DNA of 24,685 nucleotides, from contig JBHLQM010000056.1 of assembly GCA_048884785.1 (NCBI GenBank), forward strand, positions 1 through 24,685. Direction: 5' to 3'. Below are positions 585-24,685 of the stretch, in pieces. Made by a program: the position numbers and the translations under genes. The notes under the pieces were generated by a model, which searched no databases, was not told the DNA's origin, and was given only the letters and a program-made list of their open reading frames with translations. The first letter of the stretch is position 1; each line of letters opens with the position of its first letter. Source of the stretch: Candidatus Thorarchaeota archaeon. Its GTDB lineage: Archaea > Asgardarchaeota > Thorarchaeia > Thorarchaeales > Thorarchaeaceae.

Positions 585-692
585 GCCTCGGTAGCTAAGT
601 GGTCTAAGGCGCCTGACTTGTATGTCAGGAGACCCTTGTCCTCTGATCAAGATATCAGGAGACCGCGAGTTCAAATCTCGCCCGGGGCTCCA
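585..692 (+). tRNA. tRNA-Thr(UGU) with 31-nt intron at 37/38 (623-653)
   Basis: Acceptor GCCTCGG/CCGGGGC, U73, encoded CCA. Anticodon stem CCTGA/TCAGG with TGT at 619-621. T arm GCGAG-TTCAAAT-CTCGC. Strict BHB: CTTG(617-620)/CAAG(648-651), bulges TAT and ATA. Confidence 0.93.
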
Positions 693-784
693 TTCATTTT
701 CTATTATTTTCACTGTGCAAAATTAGAGTTGTTCCCTTGGAGAATTACACCTGTTGCTCTATAATAGAAGCCCAAGGAAACATC

Positions 785-2707
785 TCATTGGTTTTCTAAC
801 ATCTTTTTGACTTCTAAAGTAATCAAATCCTTGACGGTCTTTCCGTCTGCTTTGCCTCGCAGTTCTTTCATTGCAACTCCCATAATACCTCCAATGGCCC
901 TCTCGCCTTGTTCATGAACGAATTCAATACGTTCTGCAACTATCTTCTTGATGATTTCTTTCACTTCGTTCTCTGCGACCATCGAGAGTCCCGTTGCATT
1001 CAATGCATTCTCAATACTTGAGGTAGGATTCTGTGCTAAGTATGAGAGAACAGCAGGAATGGCATCGCTTGATAGTTGCTCACTACCAACTGCACGAAAC
1101 AACAATTCAAAATGCTGGTCAGTCAGCCTGTCCGTTTGGATACCATCTCTGCTAAGGCTCACAACAGTATTTTCAATGGTAGCAGCAACGAGAGTTGGTG
1201 AAATCTTGGGCACTTCATGTATAATATACTCATACAAATCCAGTCTCACAGATTTGACAACTTGAGATGCAAGTTCTGGTGAGAGCGAGTGTTCTTTGAT
1301 GAACCGTTTCTCCTTGTGTTCGAGAGTTTCAGGCATCTCTCTCTCAATCCGCTCAAGCCATTCATCAGTAATCTTCACAGAGCGCACATCAGTTTCCGGA
1401 TACATACGACTTGATCCCGGCCGTGGTCTGGCGTAACTTGTGGTCCCGTCCTGCAATGGAGTTCTTGTTTCTGCAGGCACTCCAATTACAGCTTCTCGAG
1501 CTCTAGCCACGACAGATTCAAGGGCACTCCGACAATTATCCTCAGGAGCTGCAACAATGACAAACGCATCTTGGTCTGCAAGTTTCAAAGTTATTCTCAG
1601 TCTGTTCACATCTTCGTCTGTGATACCATACTTAGGCAGCTCATCAGAGTGAAAGATTCCGCCAACACCACCCCAGAACTTTGCATAATCTGACAGCTCG
1701 GTGCCAAGCCTTCGATTTGGCTGAATTTCACGACCCACCAGACCTGAGAATCCTGTTAGCTTTACACTATAGACAAACCCCCCGGAACGAATAGCTCCTT
1801 TAATCACCTTTGACTCACTATTAGCAAAAATACTACTGACATCAATGATATCTCCAGCCATGTTTTCTGGAGTTATACCACGGTCAACAAGCTCATTGCG
1901 AATCTCAAGCAGGCGTTCCTGACGGAGTGCTTCATACTCTACAACAGTGGAAAGCAAATCAAGCTGCTGAAGCCCTTTGATTTCTGTTATTGCACCGTCC
2001 TTTATCGAAACATTGACATCTTGACGAATTGTCCCTTGTCCGCGCTTTACTTTTCCAGTCGCTCTTAGCAACATACCAATTGCTAGTGCCACATTTTGTG
2101 CTTCAATAGGACTTTGTATGTCTGGTGCTGTTGCTATCTCAATAAGAGGTATACCTAACCTATCCAGTCGATAGATTCGCACGTTGTTCTTATCATCATC
2201 AGCAATTTTGCGTGCAGCATCTTCCTCAATGGCAATTGTCTGAATTCCAATATTCCTGCCTTCGACAACTATGTTTCCACCTAGAGCAACAATAACTGTT
2301 CTCTGGAATCCTGTTGTATTACTTCCATCAATCACAGTTTTACGCATCGGATGTAGTTCATTGATCGGATTTGAACCAAGGAAGTTTGCCATGATAAGAC
2401 AGGTATCGATTGCTTCTTCGCAGAGGTCATGAGGCGGTTCTTCATCTATTTCAACAAGACATGTAGAATCATTATAATATTCGTAACAGAATCTCTTCCC
2501 TCTCTGGAATTCGAATAGAGCTGCAGGATCAACCTCTCCGAGCTCACCCTTGGTTGGTCGGAGACGCCGAATGAATGTACCATCGGGTTCCCTCTCTCGT
2601 ATCAGGGTTGGACAATGACAAAACAATTTTCTCTCGGTATCTAGCTGTTGATGAAGTTCAAGACCAACCATCAAACCCAACTCTTCATAGTGGGAGTTTC
2701 TCTTCAG
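785..2707 (-). CDS. gatE: Glutamyl-tRNA(Gln) amidotransferase subunit E
   Basis: GLELHQQL...KLFC, RKTVIDGSNTTGFQRT, LDRLGIPLIEIATAPD, GTIRQDVNVSI, RPRPG..RMYPETD, AspRS-like insertion and C-terminal GKADGK. Start uncertain: CTG 2707 after GGAGGTG, or TTG/ATG at 2680-2671. Confidence 0.96.
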   Translation of the reverse strand: MKRNSHYEELGLMVGLELHQQLDTERKLFCHCPTLIREREPDGTFIRRLRPTKGELGEVDPAALFEFQRGKRFCYEYYNDSTCLVEIDEEPPHDLCEEAIDTCLIMANFLGSNPINELHPMRKTVIDGSNTTGFQRTVIVALGGNIVVEGRNIGIQTIAIEEDAARKIADDDKNNVRIYRLDRLGIPLIEIATAPDIQSPIEAQNVALAIGMLLRATGKVKRGQGTIRQDVNVSIKDGAITEIKGLQQLDLLSTVVEYEALRQERLLEIRNELVDRGITPENMAGDIIDVSSIFANSESKVIKGAIRSGGFVYSVKLTGFSGLVGREIQPNRRLGTELSDYAKFWGGVGGIFHSDELPKYGITDEDVNRLRITLKLADQDAFVIVAAPEDNCRSALESVVARAREAVIGVPAETRTPLQDGTTSYARPRPGSSRMYPETDVRSVKITDEWLERIEREMPETLEHKEKRFIKEHSLSPELASQVVKSVRLDLYEYIIHEVPKISPTLVAATIENTVVSLSRDGIQTDRLTDQHFELLFRAVGSEQLSSDAIPAVLSYLAQNPTSSIENALNATGLSMVAENEVKEIIKKIVAERIEFVHEQGERAIGGIMGVAMKELRGKADGKTVKDLITLEVKKMLENQ

Positions 2708-2708
2708 T

Positions 2709-4067: not shown

Positions 4068-4126
4068 TCACACCTTCGCGTTGACAAATGAGTTCCTGCT
4101 GGCTCAGACATAAAGTCTTCGGGAAC

Positions 4127-4690
4127 CTAGATTATCTTGAAAATCACTAATAGTCCAAACAGAACAAAGACAATGCCTGCCACCAATCTAATAGTTTTCA
4201 GTGACACCTTATCAGAGATATAATCTCCAGCAAAAACACTCATGACATTCAAAAACAGAAATCCCATTACTGCCCCGATGAAGACCATTGCAGGGAATAA
4301 GGATTGAACGGCAAGGGCAAGAATCGCAATCTGACTCTTATCACCTAACTCAGAGAAGAGTATGAGGGAAACCATACTCAGGAAGGTTGCAGGGGTATCA
4401 CAGTCATCCAATTCTTGCTTGTTTCTCCTAGCAATGGTAAAAATGCCTAATCCTAGAAACAGAAACCCTGAGATGTAGATAATGAACTCCACAGGAAGTG
4501 CAGCAGAAAGAATAACACCAACAATCACTGCGATTAGCGTCGAAGTAGCTAGCGCTATAATTGTTGCCAAAAGGACTATCCAAGGTCTTCTATATTGTGC
4601 ACTGAGACACATTGCAGTTATCATAGTCTTATCCCCAAACTCAGTGAGGAAAATAAGACCAGCAGATGCTAGAAGAACTTGAAGTGGCAT
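4127..4690 (-). CDS. TMEM165/GDT1 (UPF0016) family Ca2+/Mn2+ transporter
   Basis: Two E-x-G-D-K-[TS] motifs (EFGDKT, ELGDKS) in a hydrophobic two-repeat membrane protein. Confidence 0.9.
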   Translation of the reverse strand: MPLQVLLASAGLIFLTEFGDKTMITAMCLSAQYRRPWIVLLATIIALATSTLIAVIVGVILSAALPVEFIIYISGFLFLGLGIFTIARRNKQELDDCDTPATFLSMVSLILFSELGDKSQIAILALAVQSLFPAMVFIGAVMGFLFLNVMSVFAGDYISDKVSLKTIRLVAGIVFVLFGLLVIFKII

Positions 4691-4742
4691 TTTGTTTTGC
4701 AGCCCTCTTGAAGCTACTTAAGGAACTATCTGTAATGGCCAA

Positions 4743-6053
4743 TTAGAAGAGATTTTTTTCCTGAATCTCTCGTGTTAGCCCATTGTTTCTAATTATTTCT
4801 TTAAACATGTAGGCACTCTCTCGAGGGACGCGATTCAGGGTTTTGGGCTCCATTCCAACTAGACCAAAGTCGCTTCCAAATCCCTCCGCCCATTCAAAGT
4901 TAGTGACCCATGTCCAAACAAGATATCCCCGAATGTCAATTCCTTCTTGAATCGCTCTATGCACCTGCTGAAGATGCTTTACAATATAAGATCGCTTCAG
5001 AGCATCATCCTTTGTACCGATACCATTCTCAGTCATGAAAAGGGGCTTTCTATACCTGTCCCAGTATGACCTGATAATTGGGTAGTATCCTTCTGGGTAG
5101 ACCTCCCAATCCAGGCCGTCACATCTTGGCAAGTCAGGATCCTTCTCTGGCAGTTCCCCTGCCAAGAAGTCCATCTCCGAAGAAACTACCATTCTGCTAT
5201 AATAGTTGACACCAATAAAATCAACAGAATTCTCTAGAGGTTTGTACCGCGGGGAATTTCCCTCTATGTCTGGAAGGGTTGCAGTCACAGCGCCTCGAAT
5301 CCAAATCTGGTTGTAAATCTCATCAAGATAATTAACAAGCTCAACATCACTCGGATTATTCGGGTCCTTTGGCTCGAAGTATGAAACACTAATTACTGGG
5401 GCAATCTGTGGCTGAGGTTTTCCTCTGTCTGAATGAACCTCTCGAATACAAGTGGCAGCTTGTCCATGAGCCATGAGCATGTGTCTAGTCACAATCTGTG
5501 ATTTTCCAAAGTCTTTTTCCTGAGGCGGGAACCCTCCATACAAATACCCCAATGCAGCAACCACCATTGGCTCATTGATAGTATTCCAGATTATACTCAA
5601 ATCAGAGAAAGACTCAGCCACTTTCCTTGCATAGTTTCCAAAAATCTCTGGGCTTTCTGGATTCAACCAAGCTTGCATATCACGAAACCATAGAGGATTA
5701 GTGAAATGATGAAGAGTCATCATTGGTTGTATGCCTCTTTTAATCAGCGCCTTGATTACACTTCGGTAATGTTCAATCTCCTTTTCATTCCATTTTCCCA
5801 TCTTTGGCTCAATTCTACTCCACTCTAGTGAAAAACGATGTACCTGATGCCCAAATTCTTTCGCTAGATCAAAATCCTCCTCATATCGATTGTAGTGGTC
5901 ACATGCTATTCTGGCATTGCTTCCATCTTTGATGTTTCCAGGGATTTTCTCCCATTCACTCCAATCATTATGATTTCCCCCTTCACTTTGGTGAGAAGAA
6001 GAGGCAGTCCCCCAAAGGAAACCATTCGGGAATCTAAGATCTTTGAACTTCAT
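4743..6053 (-). CDS. Glycoside hydrolase family 1 (beta-glucosidase/galactosidase)
   Basis: FPNGFLWGTASSSHQSEG, RFSLEWSRIEP, acid/base TINEP, nucleophile TENG, NFEWAEG. Start ATG 6053 preferred, 6083 possible. Confidence 0.93.
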   Translation of the reverse strand: MKFKDLRFPNGFLWGTASSSHQSEGGNHNDWSEWEKIPGNIKDGSNARIACDHYNRYEEDFDLAKEFGHQVHRFSLEWSRIEPKMGKWNEKEIEHYRSVIKALIKRGIQPMMTLHHFTNPLWFRDMQAWLNPESPEIFGNYARKVAESFSDLSIIWNTINEPMVVAALGYLYGGFPPQEKDFGKSQIVTRHMLMAHGQAATCIREVHSDRGKPQPQIAPVISVSYFEPKDPNNPSDVELVNYLDEIYNQIWIRGAVTATLPDIEGNSPRYKPLENSVDFIGVNYYSRMVVSSEMDFLAGELPEKDPDLPRCDGLDWEVYPEGYYPIIRSYWDRYRKPLFMTENGIGTKDDALKRSYIVKHLQQVHRAIQEGIDIRGYLVWTWVTNFEWAEGFGSDFGLVGMEPKTLNRVPRESAYMFKEIIRNNGLTREIQEKNLF

Positions 6054-6110
6054 TGGTATCAAGTGTCTGAAAACAAAACCCATGAATAAGGATATCCCAA
6101 ATAGAAAAAT

Positions 6111-6260
6111 TGGTGCGGGAGGTGGGATATTCCAGACAGATGATAATCATATGCCTATTCGAACCCACGGACCCCTACGGGAGCGGATTTCTTGTCGAAT
6201 GACCCCATACTTCATACGATCTTAAGTCCGCCGCTTTTGACCAGGCTTAGCAACTCCCGC
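6111..6260 (-). tRNA. tRNA-Leu(UAA) with two introns: 37/38 (6220-6189, 32 nt) and 59/60 (6157-6128, 30 nt)
   Basis: GCGGGAG/CTCCCGC, A73, CCA. GCGGA-CT-TAA-G[intron]A-TCCGC. Long variable arm. GTGGG-TTCGAA[intron]T-CCCAC. Both introns form relaxed BHBs with one mismatch in the central helix. Confidence 0.9.
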
Positions 6261-6388
6261 TGAATGCCTGAAAAAGAGCAGACGCTCCAGTTTGGGACTC
6301 ACCGCATAAGTCTGCAGGTACCAAGTGTCTATTCAACTCTTTGGTGCTTACATCTCATTATAATCAGATTTGTACTGCAAATATGACA

Positions 6389-6498
6389 TGGTGGGCCGCG
6401 CCGGATTTGAACCAGCGACCTTCGATGCAAACGAGCATGAATCTCATTTGAATTCTCGGTGTAAACGAGACATCATAGCCGGGCTAGACTAGCGGCCC
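6389..6498 (-). tRNA. tRNA-Val(UAC) with 32-nt variable-loop intron at ~44/45 (6452-6421)
   Basis: GGGCCGC/GCGGCCC, A73, CCA. Intact anticodon arm TCTCG-TT-TAC-AC-CGAGA. Removing the insert restores variable loop AGGTC before GCTGG-TTCAAAT-CCGGC. Confidence 0.9.
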
Positions 6499-6630
6499 AT
6501 TATAGTCGTTCAAGCAACCAGTCAATTAAAAACGTTATCTCAATGTGCCAAATTTAACCCAACAATTAGCTACAGAGATTGAACTTGAAAGCAAGAAAGA
6601 TAGAAACCTGTAATGTCACTGGGGATTAGT

Positions 6631-7296
6631 CTATCCTCTTTGCCCAATAAAATGAAATTCCTTAACGGAAGAATCAAGCTCAACAATCTGAGATTCAGAA
6701 TAATAGTCTGATAAGTTTGAAACGATATTAGTATCCAATTTACCCTTGAACGCCGCTATTAGTCTACCACCATGTTTCAAAACTGGTGTGAATCTTTCAA
6801 TCAGCAACAGCGTCCCATTGGGATCGGTTGTTACATCAATGAGTAATACATCGAGTTCTCCTGCATTACAGATTGCATATGGGTCTATCGAGAATGCATC
6901 TCCAGCAATCAATGTAAACAGGCCTGTAAAGCTTTTTTCCAATTCGCGAAGTGTAGGAATAAATGTTTCAGATATCTCGACTCCTACTACTTTTGCTCCT
7001 TTTTCCAATAAGTAATAGAGAAACCCTCCTGCAGAGCTTCCAACATCAAGCGCAAAAGTTCCCGGTTTCACAAGACGTCCTTGAACCCTATCATCGAGCT
7101 GCTTGAGCTTACCATACCCCCGAGGCAAATCTCGTGCCAGGCTCGAAACGAGTATCTTCTCCTTGCCGGTCACATGATAAGATGGTTTCATCGGTCTTCC
7201 ATCTACAGTAACAAGTCCCTCCTTTATTGCTCTCTTGGCTGCTTGTCTAGAAGTGAAAATATTCTCTTCAACAAGCCAGACATCAAGTCTTGGCAT
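6631..7296 (-). CDS. S4-domain/FtsJ-type (TlyA-like) RNA methyltransferase
   Basis: N-terminal S4 motif (RLDVWLV...SRQAAKRAIKEGLVTVDG), SAM motif LDVGSSAGGF, and 'IDV'. Start ATG 7296 overlaps the upstream gene. Confidence 0.85.
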   Translation of the reverse strand: MPRLDVWLVEENIFTSRQAAKRAIKEGLVTVDGRPMKPSYHVTGKEKILVSSLARDLPRGYGKLKQLDDRVQGRLVKPGTFALDVGSSAGGFLYYLLEKGAKVVGVEISETFIPTLRELEKSFTGLFTLIAGDAFSIDPYAICNAGELDVLLIDVTTDPNGTLLLIERFTPVLKHGGRLIAAFKGKLDTNIVSNLSDYYSESQIVELDSSVKEFHFIGQRG

Positions 7297-8053
7297 TTCG
7301 TTTTTCCTCAATTTCTTCTGGGATGAATAGATGCATAGGCACACCTCGCATCTTCGGTCCTATAGCTGCAAGTATTCCGGTTGCACGGGTACCTCTCTTA
7401 CACTGAAGTGAGAACTCAAACCGTCCCAGCTGTTCTATCAGATAGATATCTCCTTCATGTCCTGACTTTTGCAGTGTGCTCTCTATCATCTGCTGGTTGG
7501 CGCCAAATACAAGAAGTCGTTCGTGGTCATCCTTCAACCAGTTTTCAAATCTCTCCAAAAAGCTTGGTGCAAGCTCGGCTCCAATTTGCTCATCATCAAG
7601 ATTTACGCTTGTCACTCTTATTTCGAGAGGTAAATTGTCAACTAAGACATGAGTTTCGGCTATCTTTCTAAGAGATTTTCCTCTCATAACGAGCTGTTCT
7701 CGAAGTTGGTGCAATGGAATAAGAGCATCAATTCTTGGTTCCTGTAGACCAACATCCACATACAAACCATACCCAACTTTTCCTACATCCACAAGTTGCC
7801 CACGATAGATGCTTTCCGGGAGAATATCATACATCTCGGGCACTCTCCCATATTCTTGTGCAAGAAGATTGACAACAAACTCCTCATCGGATCCTGAAAC
7901 AGAAAGAAGAAGATGTCCTCTTTTGTCCGTGTCAAGAGCGACCTTCTCAAGGTCGAGCTCCTCTAGCATCCCCTCTATCTCAGACTGAATGATTCCTAGA
8001 AGCCTGTTTTGATATTGTCCATAAACTCGGGGAAGTAATGCTATACGCTGCAA
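7283..8053 (-). CDS. DUF2110 family protein
   Basis: 'G.LVDVGKVGYGLYVDVG', 'LVDNLPLEI' and 'CKRGTRATGILAAIG' motifs; located in the usual archaeal position downstream of tfe. Confidence 0.75.
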   Translation of the reverse strand: MQRIALLPRVYGQYQNRLLGIIQSEIEGMLEELDLEKVALDTDKRGHLLLSVSGSDEEFVVNLLAQEYGRVPEMYDILPESIYRGQLVDVGKVGYGLYVDVGLQEPRIDALIPLHQLREQLVMRGKSLRKIAETHVLVDNLPLEIRVTSVNLDDEQIGAELAPSFLERFENWLKDDHERLLVFGANQQMIESTLQKSGHEGDIYLIEQLGRFEFSLQCKRGTRATGILAAIGPKMRGVPMHLFIPEEIEEKRNAKT

Positions 8054-8121
8054 TTAAATTGACCCATTATGCAAACCTTTGAAATCTCCTAAGTAGTTTG
8101 CGAAGTAAACAGATAAACCCA

Positions 8122-8649
8122 TTATCCTATAGAAGTCGCTTCTAAATCGGCTTTCAGTTCTTCAACACGCTTTTTCAAGAAAGACACAGCTCTCTTATTA
8201 TCTACATATTCAAGTGGCTCATTACATGACGGGCATCTGAAAGAAAGATTCATCGCTTCTTCAAAAGGAACAGGAGACGAATCACCTTTAACGCATGCAT
8301 AGAGGTCGTTATTGCTCTCATGCTGAAGTCTCTGTTCAAGGAGATTCAAGACCATTCGTTTCTTGCGGTTAACTAGAGCCTGTGCTTTCTTTGGATCTAT
8401 ACGCCAATAGTAGAGAAACCAACCTGTATTCGTATCACGGATTCTACGATATGATGCCAGATGATTATCATGAAGCTTGTAGAGAATTCGTCGAACAATA
8501 TTTAGCTTCAAATCTGTCTTTGTAGCAATCTCCTCATCTGTAGTTTCATCAGCATTTACCAATACTGTTGCAACATCTACCCCTTCTTTCCCTGCTATTT
8601 CCTCAACAACTAAACGGAAGAGGTCGGTGTTGAAGCTAGTTTGTGCCAT
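8122..8649 (-). CDS. tfe: Transcription factor E (TFIIE-alpha homologue)
   Basis: Winged helix TDEEIA...LNIVRRILYKL...YRRIRD..TGW..YYW, and zinc ribbon C...FEEAM..FRCPSC..PL..VDN. Confidence 0.95.
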   Translation of the reverse strand: MAQTSFNTDLFRLVVEEIAGKEGVDVATVLVNADETTDEEIATKTDLKLNIVRRILYKLHDNHLASYRRIRDTNTGWFLYYWRIDPKKAQALVNRKKRMVLNLLEQRLQHESNNDLYACVKGDSSPVPFEEAMNLSFRCPSCNEPLEYVDNKRAVSFLKKRVEELKADLEATSIG

Positions 8650-8802
8650 TTACTGTTTTCACCTATATTGTTGGTAGATGGATAATCAACTGAACCCATT
8701 GAGCGTCATTAGACCTAAGACGAGAGATATATACCTGTAATAGTATTTAGTCATATACTATATAAGAGCTGTTCTTTGAGCTACAATTGCACAAGTTTCT
8801 CG

Positions 8803-9384
8803 CTAGCTGCTCTTTTGTGACTTTTTTCTCTTGACTTTCACTATATCTCCCAGAGTTGCACCGCTTTCTCCCTTCTCACGAGACAACTTTAGTGGTACCG
8901 TACCAATAGGTTCCAAGAGCGAAATATCAAGCTCTCTCTCCAATCCTCGTATTGTCTTTCGAATAGGCTTTAGTCGTCCTGATTCAATTGACTGAAGGGT
9001 GGAAATTCTTTCTCCAACTTTTTGAGCAAGTTCTTCCTGACTCAATCCTTTCTTCTGGCGAGCCTTTCGAATAATATCTGAATAGTTCTCGATGAGATCC
9101 AGGTCATCAAGGAGAGGCCCACCGCTGGACGGCCTCGGTTTTGGTTTCTGGGTCACTTGAGGGCGAGGTGTTGTGCGAGGTGGTACGTGTGAAGTTGTTG
9201 TTTCCGGGCCACCTATCCAAGATGGACGAGCCGATGGCATTTGTCTTCCTTTTCCTGAATATGACTCTGATTTACCACCAAATTTGTCTGCACACTGGGG
9301 ACATACGTTCATCAGAGCGCCTTCGATTGTGACATTACGTCCACGGCCTTTCATGTTTCTTCCACATAGTTCGCAACTTGGCAC
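8803..9384 (-). CDS. mbf1: Archaeal multiprotein bridging factor 1
   Basis: N-terminal CELCG...VCPQC zinc ribbon, Cro-type HTH (IRKARQKKGLSQEELA...IESG) and C-terminal TLGD. GTG 9384 follows GAGGGTG. Confidence 0.9.
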   Translation of the reverse strand: MPSCELCGRNMKGRGRNVTIEGALMNVCPQCADKFGGKSESYSGKGRQMPSARPSWIGGPETTTSHVPPRTTPRPQVTQKPKPRPSSGGPLLDDLDLIENYSDIIRKARQKKGLSQEELAQKVGERISTLQSIESGRLKPIRKTIRGLERELDISLLEPIGTVPLKLSREKGESGATLGDIVKVKRKKSQKSS

Positions 9385-9520
9385 AAAAAGCACCCTCTGA
9401 ATTCTACGTTCTTCGGATTCCTGATAAACATTGACCTTGTTTCACCAAAATATCTTACTTGCCATGCAAGTTTAAAACTTGAAGCCATTTCCACTCGGCG
9501 CGACCAAATCAAGAACTAGT

Positions 9521-10558
9521 CTATTTTTCACACAATTCTCTCATTTTCCTCTCATTGGGCTTTTTGATAATTCCCTTGTCTGTGACGATTGCCGTGATAA
9601 GCTCCGGTGGAGTCATGTCAAATGCAGGATTGTACACCTTTGCTGTGGGTACAGTCACAGGTAGTCCATTTATGATACGTACTTCATCAGGATCTCTTTC
9701 TTCAATCTCTACTTCTTCTGGATTTGTCTTCATATCAACGGTGGACATTGGGGCAACACTGTAGAATGGAATATCATGATAATGAGCTACAATCGCCATA
9801 GTATACGTGCCAATCTTGTTGATGACATGACCAGTACGAAGAATCCTGTCAGCTCCGACCACACAGCAATCAACTCTTCCCTCTCGAAACACAGTTCCTA
9901 TCATACCATCGGTAATCAGTGTAGTATCAATACCATCTTCCATAAACTCGAAGACAGTCAGTCTTGAGCCCTGCTGACGTGGTCTCGTTTCAGCAGAATA
10001 GACCTTGATGTTTCCGTTATAGTGTTCATGTGCCACTCGTACAACTGCTCCAACTGTGCCTAAGTGAACAGTAGCCAACGACCCTGCATTGCAAATTGTC
10101 TGTATCGTATATCCTGGTTTGATTAACTCAAGTGCATTTTCACCAATTCTTCTGCACATACGAACATCTTCCTCAGCAATCTCTTTTGCCTCATCAATTA
10201 GCTGCCGAATTATATCATTGATACTGCCATCTGCTGATTTTAGGGTCTCAAGCATACGATTTGTAGCCCACGTCAGGTTCACAGCAGTTGGTCTTGTATT
10301 TAATACCTCAGCCGCACGTTCCAAGTAGTCCAGAAGTTCGTTCTTGCTAGTAGCTCTGCTCTCAAGGGCAGCCAACGCCATACCCATCCCTGCTGCGGCG
10401 CCTATCGCAGGAGCTCCCCTAATCTCCATCACCTTGATAGCTTGGGCCATTCTCTCGTGACTATCAGTAATAATATGCTCTGTTTTCAGTGGCAGTTTTG
10501 TCTGGTCAACAAAACGCACTCTATTACTGTCATTCATCCATTCAATTGTGCGAAACAT
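9521..10558 (-). CDS. mtnA: S-methyl-5-thioribose-1-phosphate isomerase (eIF-2B alpha/beta/delta family)
   Basis: DQTKLP, IRGAPAIG, TRPTAVNL, CNAGSLAT..GT, ETRP..QGSRLT, VGADRI, NKIGTY, YNPAFDMTP. Confidence 0.9.
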   Translation of the reverse strand: MFRTIEWMNDSNRVRFVDQTKLPLKTEHIITDSHERMAQAIKVMEIRGAPAIGAAAGMGMALAALESRATSKNELLDYLERAAEVLNTRPTAVNLTWATNRMLETLKSADGSINDIIRQLIDEAKEIAEEDVRMCRRIGENALELIKPGYTIQTICNAGSLATVHLGTVGAVVRVAHEHYNGNIKVYSAETRPRQQGSRLTVFEFMEDGIDTTLITDGMIGTVFREGRVDCCVVGADRILRTGHVINKIGTYTMAIVAHYHDIPFYSVAPMSTVDMKTNPEEVEIEERDPDEVRIINGLPVTVPTAKVYNPAFDMTPPELITAIVTDKGIIKKPNERKMRELCEK

Positions 10559-10562
10559 TGTA

Positions 10563-11060
10563 CTATCCTCGTATGTGATTTTTCAGAAGTTCATCAATCG
10601 TGCTAATAAGGTTCTGAGAAACCTTTTCGATCTCTGGTGTGAGCCCCTCTCCAAATAGAATACTCTGAGGCTGAACCCCAAGAAGAATGGTCCTTCCACC
10701 AGTTTGTTCTTCCAGATACTGCATAAGGAATGATAGAGGCATACTATGTGTACTGATAGCAATTCCGCCTATTCTATCCTTGGTGACCAATTCAATGTGA
10801 CCCACTGGCTTTTTCATATCTGCTGCATCAACCATTATCACTCGTTCTGCACCAAACTCCGCCAAAGGACGGGCAAAAGCCTCTGGTACCGAGCCGACAC
10901 ATTCTATGAAAATGTCAGGGTGCCTCGTGCTCAACCCATTGACGATGTAAGGTCCAAGACCATCATCCGTTCTCAAGTCGTTCCCAAGTCCCAATATTGC
11001 AATCTTCTTTGAACCTGAGATGAAGTCTTTCAGTTGGTGCACAATTTTGGGGTCGGTCAC
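10563..11060 (-). CDS. hycI: HycI-type hydrogenase maturation endopeptidase
   Basis: ILGLGNDLRTDDGLG, G.VPE, VDAAD, STHSMPL, LGVQP....FGEGLT. Start ambiguous (GTG 11060 or ATG 11099). Confidence 0.85.
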   Translation of the reverse strand: MTDPKIVHQLKDFISGSKKIAILGLGNDLRTDDGLGPYIVNGLSTRHPDIFIECVGSVPEAFARPLAEFGAERVIMVDAADMKKPVGHIELVTKDRIGGIAISTHSMPLSFLMQYLEEQTGGRTILLGVQPQSILFGEGLTPEIEKVSQNLISTIDELLKNHIRG

Positions 11061-11158
11061 ATCAAACGACCTGTCGTATCCGACTATATCTCTTATCATT
11101 GGACACGTCGAAGAGTTTTTCACAATTGTACACCGCGCCTACATCTGTAGGCGAATGC

Positions 11159-11806
11159 ATGTTGTCTGATCAAGAGAGGAACTCCGAGTTTCCTTTGGAA
11201 TCATCTGATGAAGAACTCGATGAATTTGTTGATGAAGAACCCGAGGAAGAGGAGGAACCGTCAAGTGCAATTTTCAGAGATGAGAAGGGCTACGTTGGAA
11301 AAGACGATGCTGATAGAATATCCCAACAGGGATTCTATGGATCTCGACTTGATGATGGCACATTACAACTTGAGCCTGTGGAATTGCTACATTTACTAGA
11401 GCGAAAGAGAATTACATTGGCAAACGCAGCAGGTGAAACAATTGGTTCCGCACATATTATCAAGGAGCTACTTGCCAAAGACCCCGATCTCTGGATACGT
11501 TATCTTGTGTTTCGTGATTTACGAAGTAGGGGATATGCAGTACGCCAAGGATTTGGGAGTGGAATTGGATTTCGAGTATACAGTCGTGGAGAACGGCCTG
11601 GATCGTCAACTGCAAGCCAGCTAATCTATGTGCTAAAAGAAGGAGTCCCCATATCACTACAGGAACTTGATGCAGTAACAGAAACCGCCTTATCGGCACG
11701 CAAGTTTCTCTTGTTTGCATTGGTAGACCAAAATGGAGAAGTAAATTATTACCGAGTTGCCCAAGCAACACTTCGTGACCTTGGAGGGAATACTAATAAT
11801 GAATGA
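11159..11806 (+). CDS. endA: tRNA-intron (splicing) endonuclease subunit, probably non-catalytic beta type
   Basis: [23 protein letters not shown]...G..FRVY and [18 protein letters not shown]. The catalytic His position is Thr. Confidence 0.88.
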
Positions 11807-13064
11807 TGATTGGATGAATGAAGATGAGGAGCTAGTCAAGCTAGATGCCTTTTTCGATGAACATACAATGAGTGTACACCTAATAGAGAATAATCCTCCT
11901 CGTGCAAAACGCGGTGCACCTGGCGAGTGGGCATTAGTAGAACTGTCAGAAAGAATTCTTACACAAGAGGAACTTGAGATTCTGGCCGAAGCGATAATTG
12001 AAAGCGCTCGGAACGATCGACAATCATTCATTGAAATTGAGGAGGACGGAGCTGCTGTAGTGCAGCTAAGAAATCTCCGCATAGCAATAGCCATGCCTCC
12101 ATTTGCAGATAAATTTGAGATTTCAGCGATTAAACCCATCAAGAAGCTATCAATTGAAGAGTATCATTTGAGTCCAAAACTTACGAACCGACTTGAAACG
12201 AGGGCCGAAGGAATTCTAGTCACTGGCTCTCCTGGGTCTGGAAAATCGACATTTTCAGCTGCTCTTGCTGAGTTTTATAGCAAAAAGGGCAATATCGTAA
12301 AAACACTTGAGCAACCCAGAGACCTCCAAGTATCAGAAGACATCGTACAGTATTCACCTCTTGATGGCAGCATGGAAAAGGCTGCTGACATTCTGCTACT
12401 TGTTCGTCCTGACTATGTAATATATGATGAATTGAGAAAGAACAGTGATTTTGAGGCATATTCGGATTTGAGGGCTGCTGGAGTTGGTATGGTGGGAGTG
12501 GTCCATGCTGGGTCATCTATAGATGCCATTCAAAGACTGATACTGCGAGGAAGAGTCGAACTTGGTCAGCTACCAAGCACAGTAGACACGGTCATACATA
12601 TTGAGGCTGGCAAAGTTGCCAAGGTTTCCTCACTAACTCTTAAAGTAAAACTTCCAACAGGTATGAGTAGCTCCCAAAAGGACCTTGCCAGACCTGTAGT
12701 TGAAGTCCGTGATTTTGAGCTTGGTGTACTTGAGTATGAGATATTCACCTTTGGTGGAGAAAAAGTCGTTGTACCCGTTCGTGGAGGCCCGCGCGTAACG
12801 CCAGTTGGTAGGGAACCACGCAGAGGTCGTCCAGGAGAAACAGTTCCTGTAAAGGTCAGCTACTCCAAGAAGAAAGTGACAATCTATGCAGGACAAAAAT
12901 ACGCAAAACAAAGGATGGAGCTGTTCGCTGATGATGCCTACCTAACAACCACCGTCATTGGACGAAATGGCGAGAGTTCGATTCGTATTAAAACTCGTCA
13001 GGGTGCAATGATTGTAGATGCAATGGAAGAGGGTGCAGCTATAACAGCAAAGATTGCAGAATAG
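11799..13064 (+). CDS. PINA-like (PilT/VirB11-class) P-loop ATPase lacking the N-terminal PIN domain
   Basis: [11 protein letters not shown]...AKRGAPGEW, Walker [47 protein letters not shown]...[12 protein letters not shown] overlaps the endA stop by 8 nt. Confidence 0.85.
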
Positions 13065-13110
13065 AAACTGCAAAACCTTTAACAACGAACGGACGACTCC
13101 GCTGACTCGT

Positions 13111-13214
13111 GGGCCCGTTGCCTAGCCAGGATAGGGCACCAGCCTCCTATCAAAGCGTTCTTCCACTTGGGAGACAGTTGGTTTCCGTGAGTTCAAATCT
13201 CACCGGGCCCGCCA
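13111..13214 (+). tRNA. tRNA-Arg(CCU) with 26-nt intron at 37/38 (13150-13175)
   Basis: GGGCCCG/CGGGCCC, G73, CCA. CCAGC-CT-CCT-A[intron]A-GTTGG. Strict BHB CTCC/GGAG with bulges TAT and ACA. Confidence 0.93.
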
Positions 13215-13361
13215 TGACTTTTGTCTTCCACCGGCTTGATACTAGCCATACAACTTGTCACATTACGGAAGTCAAGTCTTAAACAGATACCCATCGTCTG
13301 ACTTAACCTCAAAGGCACAACTTGATCAAAAGAAGATCATTCCCTATTGAATCAGGATAAC

Positions 13362-13439
13362 TGGCGGGCACGGCAGGATTCGAACCTGCGACATCCAACT
13401 CCGAAGGCTGGCGCCCTATCCTGGCTAGACTACGTGCCC
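13362..13439 (-). tRNA. tRNA-Arg(UCG), intronless
   Basis: GGGCACG/CGTGCCC, G73, CCA. CCAGC-CT-TCG-GA-GTTGG. GCAGG-TTCGAAT-CCTGC. Confidence 0.96.
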
Positions 13440-13487
13440 AAGCCATTATGATTTTGATTGCCTCTTAAGCGCTTCTGTAAATAACAG

Positions 13488-13706
13488 CTAATTCTTGCCT
13501 AGCTTCTCATTCCAGACTTCTAGGAAATACTCCAAGGATCTATCATAAGTACGCTCAGCATCCTTCGGGAATAGGCAACCGGGCAGCTCCTTGTGTTTCC
13601 AATGGTATTGCAGACAATCACAACAATAGCCTTTACGAGAACAACCAGGATATGAGCATCCGCATTGCTCCAGATTCCTCTTGGTGTTACATCTTCTCTC
13701 TGACAT
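13488..13706 (-). CDS. DUF6485-like small Cys-rich protein
   Basis: C....N...C.CSY..CSRKG.CC.CL.YH....ELPGC.F....ERTYDRS.E.F pattern. Confidence 0.8.
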   Translation of the reverse strand: MSERRCNTKRNLEQCGCSYPGCSRKGYCCDCLQYHWKHKELPGCLFPKDAERTYDRSLEYFLEVWNEKLGKN

Positions 13707-13836
13707 TGCTAGACTCAAGTGAGGCTAGGTATGAATCGTTAAAACATGTGTGGTCTGTAGTCTAGAAACAAAGACCTTGATGCGATCGATGTTCTTGCAT
13801 CCAGTTCCAGAAGAATCAAGTTTCTCCTATTCTCAA

Positions 13837-14601
13837 TCATACCTTTCCAACTGCCGAGAGATAGACTGTCATCTCGTTCTCACCATCAACCTGAATTAGC
13901 TCATCCATCGTATCTTGTCCATATGCCGCAATAGCACATGTATCAGCACCTATGCCTTCACAGGCCAAGTATAAGTTCTGACAGACATGATCCGCTTCTA
14001 TCAGGATGTCTTTATAGCTTATGACACTGTACCGCCATTCTGTTTTGTAGGGTATAGCAGCCCAGACAAAAACGACCGGCGCCAATCCAATGAAATTCTG
14101 AGACCAGGCATAATTCAGCAGTTCATTCGCACTTGGAAGACGCTCCGAGATCAAAATCAGCTTGTGCTCGATTGGAAGATACCGATAGACACCCGGTATA
14201 AGACTCTCTACATTCCTGATAAGAAGATATGTTTCGAAGGGCTGACGTCCGCCTCCGGAGGGCACCATTCGTTTAGTCCATACCCTTTTCTTGTCTACTT
14301 GACGAACTCCTTGAGTTGCCCATAGAAGAAATGACAATTCCTCAAGGGATAACGGCTCGTCTTTGAAAATACGTCTGCTCTGGCGATTGCCAATTGCTTT
14401 AATCAGAGGAACTTGTCCCACTTTGAAGTCTTTTGGCTCTACCAAATCTATTAGCTCAGCATCCTTGTCATAGGGCTTCTCTAAAGGAGGAGGGCCTACT
14501 CCCTTTTGCTGATCGGTTTTCCACCATTCATCAGGGACATCCTCAGAAATGCTGGCTTTCAAGAGTCTTCTCCTTTCTCTGATTACCTCATCATAGTCCA
14601 T
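13837..14601 (-). CDS. SagB/ThcOx-family FMN-dependent nitroreductase/dehydrogenase
   Basis: AI.NRQSRR.F, LSLEELSFLLWATQGV, R.VPSGG.R.PFETYL, GVYRY.P..H.L, H..QNLYLA. Confidence 0.88.
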   Translation of the reverse strand: MDYDEVIRERRRLLKASISEDVPDEWWKTDQQKGVGPPPLEKPYDKDAELIDLVEPKDFKVGQVPLIKAIGNRQSRRIFKDEPLSLEELSFLLWATQGVRQVDKKRVWTKRMVPSGGGRQPFETYLLIRNVESLIPGVYRYLPIEHKLILISERLPSANELLNYAWSQNFIGLAPVVFVWAAIPYKTEWRYSVISYKDILIEADHVCQNLYLACEGIGADTCAIAAYGQDTMDELIQVDGENEMTVYLSAVGKV

Positions 14602-14805
14602 TTTCTATGCCTCGCCAGATGTTGCCAATGTACCTGTACCTTAATACAATCACAACCGAACCCAACCGCTGTATAAGACTTGATAAAAAAGCAATTTTCA
14701 TTTCAATTATGCCCTTTTAACAAGTTTACTTGTAGTCTTTCATCTATTGTAGGATTAACTACAGAGCAATCCTTTTATTCGATATACTTGGAGATGAGCC
14801 AGCCT

Positions 14806-14912
14806 CGGGACGTAGCTCAATAGTGCGCTGCATCAGTAGCCACTGAGAAATCTGGCAGAGCTATGGACTGTAGATCCATTGGTTGCCGGTTCAAATCCGG
14901 CCGTCCCGACCA
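14806..14912 (+). tRNA. tRNA-Tyr(GUA) with ~30-nt D-loop intron at ~15/16 (about 14821-14850)
   Basis: C1:G72 acceptor CGGGACG/CGTCCCG, A73, CCA. Intact ATGGA-CT-GTA-GA-TCCAT. D arm GCTC-AA[insert]TCTGGCA-GAGC. The insert pairs CTCA/TGAG and GTG/CAC around an ATA bulge. Confidence 0.92.
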
Positions 14913-15228
14913 CTATTTCTCTATCCTATCCATAAACAAGACTAGTCAAAGAAGCCCAGAAAGAAGACTCTTCCATGAATTGCACAATCTCGATAGTATC
15001 TAGAACAATCCATCGGTTGCTCATCCTTTGTGTTTTCACACATAAATGCCCAAGTTTATTAAGACTTAAGAGAATCGTGAAACGCAGAAAGTGAGAAAGA
15101 AAGTTACAGGTTGCCAAAAACCATACTAAAACCAGAACGTTTTCTCTGGTATTTGAAATATCTGTTTTTCAGAAATCACAAGTTTAGTCTGTGGAATAAA
15201 CCACGCTCATGAGAGCAGGATATAAGAA

Positions 15229-18186: not shown

Positions 18187-18190
18187 AGCC

Positions 18191-21041: not shown

Positions 21042-21043
21042 CT

Positions 21044-22033: not shown

Positions 22034-22069
22034 GAGCGCTACCTGTTACCTTTTTCTATGACGCAATTT

Positions 22070-23071
22070 CTAGTAGATTTTGAATGCTTCTGCATGCGGT
22101 AGTCTGAACATTCTCTTATTGGGATTATGGCGCAATGCAGAGTAATAGGCCGTCATCTGAAGAACTACTGTATTGGCAATTACTTGGCCCAAGGAGCTCT
22201 GAAGATCCAAGCTCTCAGAACAGTGGAGATGAAAGCCTCTCATCTTTAATGTATTAGTAATCACACTCATGTACATAGCATCCCTTTCATCTCTAGGAGA
22301 ATCTGTAATCAATATCGCTGGGTCTCCATCTCTGACAGAGAGATTGTAGAAATGACGAAACTCTTCTCTAAGAGCAGCCGTTGCTTTAATTATCGAATAC
22401 TCATTAAATTTCATCATCCCAATTTGTGCAGCGATATAATTTGGCCCCTCAGATATTAGATATACCATCTCTCCTGGCTTAGGCAACTGCGAAAGTTCCT
22501 TTGCAACAGTTTCTGCCCATGATAACATCTCAGCACCAACACTCTTGAATCTCAATAGATCACAATGTATTTTCGTATCCATCTCATTCTGATAGAAATC
22601 TGCAAGTTTCAGCAAGTATGCCATGGCACTTGTTGTGGGCGCAGACGGACTAGTGTTATAGGTCTTCACGCCGGACTTGGTTTCCCAAACATGGTCAGCA
22701 TATTCAGAAGCCTTTCCCTTCTTGTTATCTGTAAGGACTACAGTAGCAGCCCCACTTTTCTTTGCATACTGCAGAGCAGTGATGGTTTCTAAACTCCTTC
22801 CAGATGCAGTTATTCCCACAACAAGAGTATCTTCATCCAAAGAAATCCTGACTAGTTCTGGAGGTGACAGACAATTGATATTCAACATTAGGGGAAGAAA
22901 TGCCCATTTGCCATAATCTGCCACTGCATAGGAATCACCACATCCAATCAGAATGACTCGTTTGTCCTTCAGAATTTCCACGTCTCTATTATCCACATTA
23001 TCAATGGTTTCCGGGATGGCTCTTACTTGCATTTTGATTGAATCGTAGCATATATCATAGAATTCCGTCAC
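22070..23071 (-). CDS. SIS-domain sugar-phosphate isomerase/deaminase-like protein (GlmS/AgaS-like)
   Basis: LIGCGDSY, VGITASGRSLET..A...AK..GA.TV.LT, second SIS domain with 'KFNE...EEFRH'. Confidence 0.85.
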   Translation of the reverse strand: MTEFYDICYDSIKMQVRAIPETIDNVDNRDVEILKDKRVILIGCGDSYAVADYGKWAFLPLMLNINCLSPPELVRISLDEDTLVVGITASGRSLETITALQYAKKSGAATVVLTDNKKGKASEYADHVWETKSGVKTYNTSPSAPTTSAMAYLLKLADFYQNEMDTKIHCDLLRFKSVGAEMLSWAETVAKELSQLPKPGEMVYLISEGPNYIAAQIGMMKFNEYSIIKATAALREEFRHFYNLSVRDGDPAILITDSPRDERDAMYMSVITNTLKMRGFHLHCSESLDLQSSLGQVIANTVVLQMTAYYSALRHNPNKRMFRLPHAEAFKIY

Positions 23072-23549
23072 CGGTTGTCAACTCCTTTAGCATATTGACA
23101 TTTGGTGGATTGTAGCCCATTTGCCTGAGTAGTCCTACAATAAATCCACGATGATGTGCTTCGTGAGTGACCAAATGTAGAAGCCCTCGTGCAATCGTGA
23201 AACTGATGGTATCCCCCTTCACCTTGAGTCTTTTCACATATTGCAGAGTGACATCAGTTTGGCCGTCGATAATATCTCGCATCTCTTTTTCAATTAATTT
23301 CCACCTTTTGGCAACATCATCAACAGTTTTGAAATCCTGAAGCTCTAGCGGAGAAGTTTCTTCGTTACCAATTACATTGATCCAATAGATCTCAGAATTC
23401 ATTAGATGAACCAAGAGGGACCGAATCGAAACCTCTCCTACTCCCAGGTTCCTTGTGAAGTCATCGTGACTGAGTTTCCTTACAGACTCTAACAAAGATA
23501 CTCTGGCTGAATAATTATGTTCCAAGAGCATCTCGATGCAAGAAATCAT
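23055..23549 (-). CDS. DinB/YfiT family protein
   Basis: SIRSLLVHL..SE.YW and LLHLVTHEAHHRG....LRQMG..PP His triad. Confidence 0.9.
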   Translation of the reverse strand: MISCIEMLLEHNYSARVSLLESVRKLSHDDFTRNLGVGEVSIRSLLVHLMNSEIYWINVIGNEETSPLELQDFKTVDDVAKRWKLIEKEMRDIIDGQTDVTLQYVKRLKVKGDTISFTIARGLLHLVTHEAHHRGFIVGLLRQMGYNPPNVNMLKELTTGDGIL

Positions 23550-23711
23550 ACTACTGAGGATGATATGAACTCCTTAAGACAATCTCGATACAAACCCAAT
23601 TTCATTTGGACGGATTTCAAGAACGGTGTTTTCTTGCGCCTTTTGAAACTCTTATAAATTTCAGACCATTGTATTTCAGATACCATCTGATATTTTGTAG
23701 TGTGGTTTTCA

Positions 23712-24569
23712 ATGAGATTTGTTAGAACTGGAAAATCTAGACAAGATACTCAAGAACGTTTAGTTGAGATTAATTCCCTTGAAGAAGCACAAGGCCGATT
23801 CAAGCGCATGGACTATTTGCTCGGATTCGTCAAAGAAGAGCACCCCGAAGTCGTCACGGAATATGTAGGCAATCTCCTAGCCAGATATCAAGATCTATTG
23901 AATGGTGAAAGAAGGAATGCTAATCCATACGACCTAGAACAACTCGTATCCGATAATCCAAATATGAAAGAGCATCTTGAACTTGCAAGAGTTACTTTGA
24001 ACTACATTCTGCAGGTGCTTCAATTACCAGCTGAAACAAAAATGGGTACATCTAAAGTTGTTAACAAGAACTATTTCCAATCATTTTCGCATCCTAGCTA
24101 TCACAACTTACTAGTCCTGACTGAAACTATTGGAAGAGCAGAGGCCATTGCATTCTATAAGAAATTCGTTACAAGCTACTGGCACTATGTTCGGAATCCG
24201 AATAGGGAAACCTATGACAATCTAGAAACTCTGTTTGAAAAGGCAACAGAGCCGAAAGAAGTACCATCTGACTGGGTAATTGTTCGAGGAATGATCGGTG
24301 ACGGAAAATATGCCTATCGCAACGATAACTGTCTCTGGATTGAAGCAATAGACGACCTGCCTGACTCTGAGCTGAAATATTATGTCTGTTGTTACGGAGA
24401 TTACGAAAGGGCCAAGGACTACCACGATAGCATAGTATTGACAATGGAGCACACCATTGCTCAAGGCGATCCCTACTGTTCTCGTGTACTTCATGATACT
24501 CGGGTTGACTGGGACTTGCGACACCCTCCCAAGAGTTTCTGGGATAATATGAAACCTGAGAATGAGTAG
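23712..24569 (+). CDS. L-2-amino-thiazoline-4-carboxylic acid hydrolase-like (ATC hydrolase/V4R-like) protein
   Basis: C-terminal NCLW...ELKYYVCCYGDY...LTMEHTIAQGDPYCS. Upstream BRE/TATA GAAACTCTTATAAA near 23645-23658. Confidence 0.7.
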   Translation: MRFVRTGKSRQDTQERLVEINSLEEAQGRFKRMDYLLGFVKEEHPEVVTEYVGNLLARYQDLLNGERRNANPYDLEQLVSDNPNMKEHLELARVTLNYILQVLQLPAETKMGTSKVVNKNYFQSFSHPSYHNLLVLTETIGRAEAIAFYKKFVTSYWHYVRNPNRETYDNLETLFEKATEPKEVPSDWVIVRGMIGDGKYAYRNDNCLWIEAIDDLPDSELKYYVCCYGDYERAKDYHDSIVLTMEHTIAQGDPYCSRVLHDTRVDWDLRHPPKSFWDNMKPENE

Positions 24570-24590
24570 TAGAAGAAGTAGCAGAAGAAG

Positions 24591-24685
24591 TGGCGCCCCC
24601 GCCGGGAATATCAGAGCAGTCGGAATTCGAGTGCTTTTTTGAACCCGGGTCTCAAGAGATCAGCTTGTGCATCAAGACGATGTCA
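24591..24685 (-). tRNA. 3' part of a tRNA, probably Asp, with a 30-nt 59/60 intron (24637-24608) and part of a probable 37/38 intron; truncated by the window end
   Basis: ...C-TCTTG-AGAC-CCGGG-TTCAAA[intron]T-CCCGG-CGGGGGC-G-CCA. G73, C38 and the 4-nt variable loop fit Asp; the anticodon lies outside the window. Confidence 0.75.

Follow-up and report, generated by a model that had tools for sequence, protein, structure and literature searches.

Results

Six of the seven tRNA genes in the window are interrupted

The window, by which we mean the whole 24,685-nt stretch of DNA analysed here, belongs to a Thorarchaeota MAG with a completeness of 91% and an estimated contamination of 5.4%; its relatives are named Thorarchaeota or Promethearchaeota, in keeping with the Asgard affiliation that a first-pass annotation had proposed from the letters alone. 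Seven tRNA genes lie in the window and six of them carry introns, eight in all, which are 26-32 nt long and occupy four tRNA positions:

585..692 (+): tRNA-Thr(TGT) gene with an encoded CCA; Rfam 55.5 bits, ARAGORN -i
623..653 (+): Thr intron, 31 nt, at 37/38; strict hBHBh', central helix 4/4, outer helix 5 bp, inner helix 6 bp
6111..6260 (-): tRNA-Leu(TAA) gene with two introns; deletion scan, two gaps against intronless orthologues
6189..6220 (-): Leu intron, 32 nt, at 37/38; central helix 3/4, A35 facing C
6128..6157 (-): Leu intron, 30 nt, at 59/60 (T-loop); central helix 3/4, inner helix 5 bp
6389..6498 (-): tRNA-Val(TAC) gene; Rfam 45.8 bits, with a 33-nt variable-region insertion
6421..6452 (-): Val intron, 32 nt, at 44/45 (variable loop); relaxed BHB, central helix 3/4
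13111..13214 (+): tRNA-Arg(CCT) gene; Rfam 44.1 bits, ARAGORN -i
13150..13175 (+): Arg-CCT intron, 26 nt, at 37/38; strict BHB, CTCC/GGAG pairing
13362..13439 (-): tRNA-Arg(TCG), the sole intronless tRNA gene in the window; plain ARAGORN, Rfam
14806..14912 (+): tRNA-Tyr(GTA) gene with a C1-G72 pair; Rfam model positions 7-64 only, 29.8 bits
14821..14850 (+): Tyr intron, 30 nt, in the D-loop at 15/16, lacking an outer helix; gap against an intronless orthologue
24591..24685 (-): tRNA-Asp(GTC), 3' part (pre-tRNA nt 45-139), the remainder lying on contig C19
24608..24637 (-): Asp intron, 30 nt, at 59/60 (T-loop), with a GAATTCC apical loop
24659..24685 (-): final 27 nt of the Asp 37/38 intron, which is 31 nt when whole

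The inserts were detected by a motif-free deletion scan whose candidates were scored with ARAGORN. With their inserts deleted the genes score 117-123 (Thr 117.3; Val 118.5, called as Val; Tyr 122.2 without its D-loop insert), against 113-123 for the genome's intronless tRNAs, and removal regains a cloverleaf whose anticodon loop has the usual 7 nt. Gaps in alignments to intronless orthologues coincide with the predicted insert sites, and together these results bear out the positions and lengths that the first-pass annotation had assigned to six interrupted genes out of seven. The gene it had listed as a probable Asp proved to be tRNA-Asp(GTC), with introns at both 37/38 and 59/60: an identical 77-nt overlap joins the end of the window to the start of C19 and completes the gene, which scores 122.9 with ARAGORN after splicing. 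The Tyr intron can also be read one base further on, as 28 nt at 14822-14849. A T-loop-like match at 2368-2376(-) falls within a coding region and was rejected as a tRNA.

The inserts resemble protein-spliced BHB introns

Scored as BHB motifs, the true junctions reach 10-16 for seven of the eight introns and 8 for the Val intron, whereas shifted placements average about 4; for the seven, at most one shifted placement attains the observed score, the Val intron being the weak one, and placement is uncertain by 1-2 nt for several introns. A strict BHB, with four of four central pairs and both flanking helices, is formed by the Thr and Arg-CCT introns only. The other six (both Leu, both Asp, Val and Tyr) fall in a relaxed class with three of four central pairs, a single mismatch that agrees with the earlier claim that most non-canonical junctions would be relaxed BHBs, and the outer helix is scant or absent in the Tyr and Val introns. 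The outer helix of the Leu 59/60 intron is the 5-bp T stem, and T stem and loop there mimic the geometry of the anticodon arm; the BHB of the Val 44/45 intron recruits anticodon-stem nucleotides 39-42.

RNAalifold applied to 12 Thr orthologues from at least seven genera returned the full BHB unprompted, with three compensatory pairs in the inner helix. On the Val region the program gave the anticodon stem alone because intron interiors misalign, and Val pairing was instead assessed by explicit pair counting: 90.7% of cells are paired across orthologues, against 17-50% if the junction is slid, and the central helix is 4/4 in four of nine orthologues. Although intron interiors diverge, the central-helix strand that lies in the intron keeps its complementarity in Asp (GCAG/ACGG/GCGG), in Leu (TAAG/TGAG/TAGG) and likewise in Val, and the orthologous Leu 37/38 introns of other genera have a 4/4 central helix (TAAG, TGAG, TAGG). 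Judged from these alignments and folds, the six interrupted genes are very probably ordinary, functional tRNA genes carrying archaeal protein-spliced BHB introns.

Standard tools overlook or misname most of these genes

Plain ARAGORN found one of the seven tRNA genes in the window; ARAGORN -i found four and miscalled Val as Glu; the Rfam tRNA model found five, Tyr only in part, and missed Asp and also Leu, whose 15.8 bits lie below its threshold. The prediction that default annotation could miss or miscall several of these genes was thus realised. Since default finders miss or misname most of the tRNA genes on this contig, annotation that relies on them would falsely report the Leu-UAA, Tyr, Asp and Val-UAC isoacceptors as missing.

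Across the genome we counted 30 introns in 24 of 44 tRNA genes (55%), or 0.68 per gene. This census is a lower bound, because the BHB-filtered double-deletion scan, which addresses genes with two non-canonical introns, covered only 369 candidates, namely 348 of the 1,279 in the relaxed class and, from 93 strict-acceptor candidates not yet scanned, those with T at position 8; it gained one gene, a Val-CAC on contig C119. The MAG holds two Val-CAC genes with unlike intron patterns. The window is not significantly enriched relative to the genome (6/7 against 24/44; binomial tail about 0.1). In this 91%-complete genome the census did not find tRNAs for Asn, Cys, Trp, Glu-CTC, Gly-CCC or Pro-GGG, and an ARAGORN call of Ala-GGC with a 184-nt intron on contig C14 was treated as a false positive.

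The genome encodes a putative (alpha-beta)2 splicing endonuclease

Two EndA paralogues are present in the genome (PF01974 occurs twice), one on contig C35 and one in the window:

11159..11806 (+): gene for the EndA beta (structural) subunit; Pfam tRNA_int_endo and tRNA_int_endo_N; reading frame open from 11099, ATG at 11159

They are encoded as separate proteins, roughly 180 aa in size, and both combine an N-terminal with a C-terminal EndA domain. The alpha subunit, a 187-aa ORF on C35, can be aligned along its entire length with 3P1Z_B, the EndA alpha of A. pernix (E 3e-42), has the catalytic Tyr/His/Lys in aligned ...favY...dHap...vKKKf segments, and is ungapped over A. pernix residues 35-55, a crenarchaea-specific loop, with K42 facing K44. 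The beta subunit has Thr at the catalytic His position in an alignment with 1A79. On the basis of PMC5829648, Lys44 in the L1 loop of the A. pernix enzyme is taken to confer broad specificity. We infer from sequence that alpha and beta would form an (alpha-beta)2 EndA with a crenarchaeal-type L1 loop and broad specificity, an enzyme for which two paralogues are expected, in line with the link to broad-specificity endonucleases drawn in the first-pass annotation; in a structure prediction of the alpha and beta complex, a control scored nearly as high.

The pair resembles the A. pernix (alpha-beta)2 EndA (3P1Z, 3AJV) in combining an alpha subunit that carries the loop Lys with a non-catalytic paralogue. 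The Thorarchaeota beta is more remote from A. pernix than is the alpha, and among PDB entries it matches the M. kandleri fusion 5X89 best (E 2.5e-21). Its N-terminus also differs in carrying an additional acidic stretch of some 55 residues.

In the mechanism we propose, the exon-intron junctions of the precursor would pair to form two 3-nt bulges flanking a 4-bp helix, which is perfect in only two of the eight introns, and the EndA assembled from the C35 alpha and window beta subunits would cut past the second nucleotide of each bulge. At both 59/60 introns the T stem and loop would stand in structurally for the anticodon arm. At Val 44/45 the anticodon stem would have to give up its 3' strand to pairing with the intron. 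RtcB, for which PF01139 matches once in the genome at 589 bits, would then ligate the exons, and circularisation of the intron is probable.

A possible shared design, and the question of copying between genes

The introns of the source genome are strikingly uniform in length (26-34 nt in 22 of 24 measured), and the mode among relatives is 29-31 nt. Five of 25 introns, among them the Asp 59/60 intron in the window, carry GAWTTYC at a fixed offset, where it makes up the apical loop in a 1+8+7+8+4+2 layout. The expected number of occurrences was about 0.2-0.35 and none of 2,000 shuffles attained five, for a motif that was defined post hoc. Uniform length and a common motif at a common offset would both suit a model in which part of the set is a copy-and-paste family of roughly 30-nt hairpins moving between tRNA genes and positions, a mode of intron spread that has been proposed for Thermoproteales. 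No pair of the genome's introns exceeds shuffled identity (maximum global identity 0.69, against 0.63-0.73 in shuffles), however, no k-mer is enriched across the introns beyond shuffles, and 104 non-canonical introns of relatives, a sample that covers few genes, show no enrichment of GAWTTYC (2 observed, 0.85 expected). For other Asgard families, a 2026 preprint likewise found no copying mechanism that holds generally (bioRxiv 10.64898/2026.10.13.758758). We regard it as rather unlikely that part of the set spread by copying between genes.

A related possibility, that introns are copies of host exons, was rejected. The mean longest common substring is 5.3 with the host tRNA, 5.1 with other tRNAs and 5.1 in shuffles, and only the Thr intron stands out, sharing a 10-mer with its host; since orthologues keep only the GTCAGG stem part of this 10-mer, exon copying fails as a general route.

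No more than a tentative suggestion is the idea that Thorarchaeota introns favour a single layout some 30 nt long (1 nt, then a hairpin of 8-9 bp, a 4-nt central helix and 2 nt), with a GAWTTYC loop in a subset wherever they are sited, and that positions 37/38, 59/60, 15/16 and 44/45 are refilled and emptied among congeners. If this were true, a lineage-specific process would generate or select the introns, which would bear on how archaeal tRNA introns arrive.

The introns are shared across the family

All eight introns of the window have same-site counterparts in other genera of the family. Identity to other genera through the intron is 83-88% for Thr, 80-93% for Val and 81-85% for Leu 37/38; same-site introns occur for Leu 59/60 in two relatives (G005 and G010) and for Asp 37/38 in at least nine genera, where the central helix is 4/4 in most cases, and the Tyr D-loop intron has a homologue in a congener (G006). 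Presence and absence vary even among congeners, and Arg-CCT orthologues have zero to two introns. An Asp gene with both a 37/38 and a T-loop intron is also found in three relatives (G004, G018 and G031), and in another (G035) the Asp introns lie at 37/38 and 53/54 instead.

The first-pass annotation had read this density as an independent proliferation belonging to the source genome, an interpretation that these counterparts do not sustain. A recent burst private to this genome might be suspected from the interruption of six of seven window genes and from the combination of 37/38 and 59/60 introns in Leu-TAA, which is absent from all relatives examined. Yet the sharing of sites for all eight introns and of sequence for three, the double-intron Asp genes of relatives and the moderate density genome-wide all speak against it, and the data point toward internal branches for most of the eight introns; we consider such a burst very improbable. 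Because same-site introns occur in other genera and presence differs within a genus, we conclude from these comparisons that the introns are an inherited family trait that turns over, not a peculiarity of the source genome.

The first-pass annotation had also named intact intronless copies and assembly artefacts as points to look into: the genome, at 91% completeness, yielded no intronless copy of the six interrupted isoacceptors, and in other studies' assemblies there are contigs that run through the genes for Thr, Val, Arg-CCT and Tyr with the inserts present and without gaps. That the source is a MAG, that its contig ends within the tRNA-Asp gene and that a search for sequencing runs containing positions 5001-15000 of the window listed none of RNA might suggest that the inserts are artefacts or the genes dead, never-spliced pseudogenes, but with the same inserts in independent assemblies, orthologous inserts across dozens of genomes, conserved exons beside introns whose divergence includes compensatory changes, and no further copies found of these essential isoacceptors, this explanation can practically be set aside.

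Discussion

Interrupted Asgard tRNA genes and the enzyme that cuts them are already published, and the window is a good example rather than a new trait. Earlier studies mapped Asgard genomes, including Thorarchaeota SMTZ1-83, as having tRNA introns of diverse kinds alongside an (alpha-beta)2 EndA (Kaneta 2018, PMC5829648) and described heavy tRNA interruption with repeated gains (Valentin-Alvarado et al. 2024, PMC11291895; Goswami et al. 2026, bioRxiv 10.64898/2026.10.13.758758); the searchable text of these three sources holds no detailed description of Thorarchaeota. Our case is like the published ones in its multiple non-canonical BHB introns, with D- and T-arm sites missed by standard tools, in its two EndA paralogues consistent with an (alpha-beta)2 enzyme with an L1 loop, and in repeated gain and loss at the same positions. 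Atabeyarchaeia and Freyarchaeia are more heavily interrupted (2.2 introns per gene, 92-97% of genes) than the source genome, which lies nearer the 0.91 introns per gene of other Asgard families in the 2026 preprint, and the median intron there is 22-23 nt whereas ours cluster near 30 nt.

Thermoproteales, which belong to a different phylum, offer the other parallel. According to work cited in those sources (among it Fujishima et al. 2010), they share introns at 37/38 and also in the D, variable and T regions, genes with two introns, relaxed BHBs and a broad-specificity (alpha-beta)2 endonuclease, which is a prediction in our case. The transposition model for Thermoproteales, as presented there, is founded on intron families spanning different genes, whereas overall identity detects none here.

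The value of these findings is practical, and they leave current concepts unchanged. To what has been published on Asgard tRNA introns, the window contributes a well-resolved case from Thorarchaeota. As congeners differ in which introns a given gene carries, the family can be used for timing the gains and losses of tRNA introns.

Interrupted tRNA genes and their detection

The window is the complete contig C56 of a metagenome-assembled genome of 3.6 Mb in 158 contigs (completeness 91%, contamination 5.4%). The first-pass annotation had warned that default annotation could miss or miscall several of its intron-bearing tRNA genes, and this is borne out: plain ARAGORN returns one gene, ARAGORN -i returns four and wrongly names Val as Glu, and the Rfam tRNA model returns five at the gathering score, matching Tyr only at model positions 7-64; the 2 remaining genes were located by sequence reading and a T-loop pattern search. 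Since CCA is encoded in every tRNA gene of the genome, we built a motif-free scan around N-CCA, taking each 7-bp acceptor stem followed by N-CCA, deleting all possible segments and rescoring with ARAGORN. In the window this recovered Thr-TGT, Leu-TAA, Val-TAC, Arg-CCT, Arg-TCG and Tyr-GTA (scores 109-122) and no tRNA gene beyond those six. The seventh gene is truncated by the contig end, where the final 77 nt of the window (24609-24685) exactly match the opening 77 nt of another contig of the same genome (G000:C19:1-77), so that the two join within tRNA-Asp. Joining them gives an Asp-GTC gene that has a 31-nt intron at 37/38 and a 30-nt one at 59/60 and scores 122.9 in ARAGORN once spliced. 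These results thus uphold every tRNA gene, position and intron length (26-32 nt) listed from the sequence alone.

The inserts as BHB introns

We conclude, on four lines of evidence drawn from sequence, that the inserts are introns, and the original observation was real and correctly described. Aligned to intronless Thorarchaeota orthologues, a comparison independent of any splicing motif, the genes show single long gaps after nt 37 in Thr, Leu and Arg, after A15 in the Tyr D-loop, at 43-45 in Val and in the Leu T-loop. When bulge-helix-bulge (BHB) geometry was scored (outer helix, 4-bp central helix, 3-nt bulges, cut after the second bulge nucleotide), seven of the eight introns reached 10-16 at the true junctions, against an average near 4 for shifted placements, 0-1 of which got as high as the observed score; Val is the exception, with a score of 8 attained by 5/56 shifted placements. 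The motif is strict in Thr and Arg-CCT, the central helix carries one mismatch in both Leu introns, both Asp introns, Val and Tyr, and a good outer helix is absent in Tyr and Val. RNAalifold folded 12 Thr orthologues into the complete motif unaided, with both-sided changes in 3 inner-helix pairs, and across Val orthologues the helix that nt 39-42 make with the 3' terminus of the intron, together with two outer pairs, is present in 90.7% of cells versus 17-50% when slid. The intron strand of the central helix also shows none but pairing-neutral variation across orthologues (Asp GCAG/ACGG/GCGG, Leu TAAG/TGAG/TAGG), and at 59/60 the T stem with its 7-nt T-loop reproduces exactly the geometry of an anticodon arm interrupted at 37/38.

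The 3' part of the Val intron (6422-6435, CTCGTTTGCATCGA) resembles the gene's own anticodon arm (6456-6469, CTCGTTTACACCGA) at 12/14 positions, a resemblance absent from relatives with a CTCG central helix.

Assembly of the inserts was examined in other studies' runs, whose contigs span the Thr gene (580-1249), the Val gene plus a portion of Leu (6155-6880), the EndA-beta and Arg-CCT genes (10916-13215) and the Tyr gene (13506-14910), all free of gaps inside these genes. None of the genome's 20 intronless tRNA genes duplicates any of the six interrupted isoacceptors, and deletion scans of the genome found no second copy of them. One contig from a different marine-sediment study (run X10) has 19 other letters in place of the Val intron region (window 6420-6472), indicating that in a close relative this site carries another insert or a shorter one.

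Splicing machinery

The mechanism is, judging from the encoded proteins and motifs, the known BHB/EndA/RtcB pathway. The genome encodes the ligase RtcB and two paralogues of the splicing endonuclease EndA. A 187-aa protein on contig C35 can be aligned over its whole length with A. pernix EndA alpha (3P1Z_B, E 3e-42), with the crenarchaea-specific loop aligned ungapped, Lys opposite K44 and the Tyr/His/Lys residues kept; the second paralogue (beta), at 11159-11806 in the window, has both EndA domains and Thr at the His position. This set agrees with the (alpha-beta)2 EndA with L1 loop described in Asgard archaea by Kaneta et al. 2018 (PMC5829648).

The EndA-beta N-terminus (window 11099-11260) is an acidic extension with Glu and Asp runs, for which solved EndA structures offer no equivalent. 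Its gene runs into the beginning of a T2SSE/AAA-type ATPase gene (11757-13064), which tRNA-Arg(CCT) follows (span 11159-13214), an order conserved in most related loci.

Introns across the genome

A census, which is a lower bound and drew also on reading of contigs C26 and C14, counted 44 tRNA genes, 24 with introns, and 30 introns (0.68 per gene). Twelve lie at 37/38; the other 18 are in the D-loop or at 30/31, 43-45, 48/49, 51/52, 53/54, 58/59 and 59/60. Seven genes carry two. The density is close to the 0.91 per gene that Goswami et al. 2026 (bioRxiv 10.64898/2026.10.13.758758) state for 'other Asgard families'; their focal families, at 2.2, lie much higher. Because the window's 6/7 against the genome rate of 24/44 gives a binomial tail of ~0.1, the window is not special in intron density.

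Two Val-CAC genes have unlike intron patterns (G000:C9:36065-36173, one intron at 53/54; G000:C119:1432-1568, two at 37/38 and 58/59), which may mean that the bin includes another strain or contaminant sequence. In Gly-GCC (G000:C14:36433-36569), ~60 nt between variable loop and T-loop must be removed, consistent with two introns around a 5-nt micro-exon (CCGGG), each ending in GGTCGGGAA.

Intron lengths are tightly grouped near 30 nt, in this genome and in the relatives sampled. No pair of the genome's introns is more similar than shuffled introns. GAWTTYC recurs, always at one offset, as part of the apical loop in 5/25 introns (expected 0.2-0.35); the five are 29-30 nt long, occupy differing tRNA positions and share a 1+8+7+8+4+2 layout, a regularity of this genome that was not recovered in the relatives' sample, which covers few genes.

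Introns with a GAWTTYC loop
Window 24608-24637: Asp, 59/60
G000 C14: Phe
G000 C26: Ile
G000 C49: Lys-CTT
G000 C57: Met

Copying of host exons was rejected as a general route, the introns in general lacking such copies. In the Thr intron, the 10 nt at 625-634 (TCAGGAGACC) repeat the 3' exon start (655-664) exactly; no other intron of the 24 tested contains a significant exon copy, and orthologues keep just the stem part GTCAGG.

Distribution across the family

Relatives reached via the EndA-beta gene carry the record titles Thorarchaeota or Promethearchaeota and share a conserved gene order (Val-Leu ... EndA-beta-ATPase-Arg(CCT) ... Tyr ... Asp). The family was compared by BLAST and deletion scan in up to 55 genomes of 16 genera.

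Intron occurrence in related genomes (G numbers; G000 is this genome, g10 and g11 are genera)
Thr 37/38: sequence 83-88% alike in at least 6 genera; elsewhere intronless or with an additional D-arm intron
Val 44/45: 80-93% alike in at least 6 genera; G007, G009 and G014 intronless; G001 with a T-arm intron instead
Leu 37/38: in most genera; missing from congeners G004 and G005
Leu 59/60: seen in G000, G005 and G010 only, the sequences differing
Asp 37/38: at least 9 genera; Asp has no intron in G042 of g11 or in any of the three g10 genomes
Asp double-intron (37/38 + T-loop): G004, G018, G031; G035 has 37/38 + 53/54
Arg-CCT: relatives vary from 0 to two introns
Tyr: relatives intronless, with 37/38 alone, or with D-arm + 37/38

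The window's Tyr D-loop intron has a homologue in congener G006, whose gene carries in addition a 37/38 intron absent from the window's Tyr. From this intron-by-intron survey, every one of the eight introns is matched at its site by an intron in a different genus of the family, with content varying within the genus. A burst of intron gain private to this genome, the independent proliferation that the first-pass annotation proposed, does not fit, as other-genus counterparts for 8/8 introns and the differences among congeners count against it. As sampled here, the family pattern fits instead the picture of repeated gains and reused positions that Goswami et al. outline (bioRxiv 10.64898/2026.10.13.758758).

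The Asgard tRNA-intron trait is already published, a Thorarchaeota genome being within the 2018 survey (PMC5829648), and the window illustrates well a kind already known; its interrupted genes carry a practical warning for tRNA annotation.
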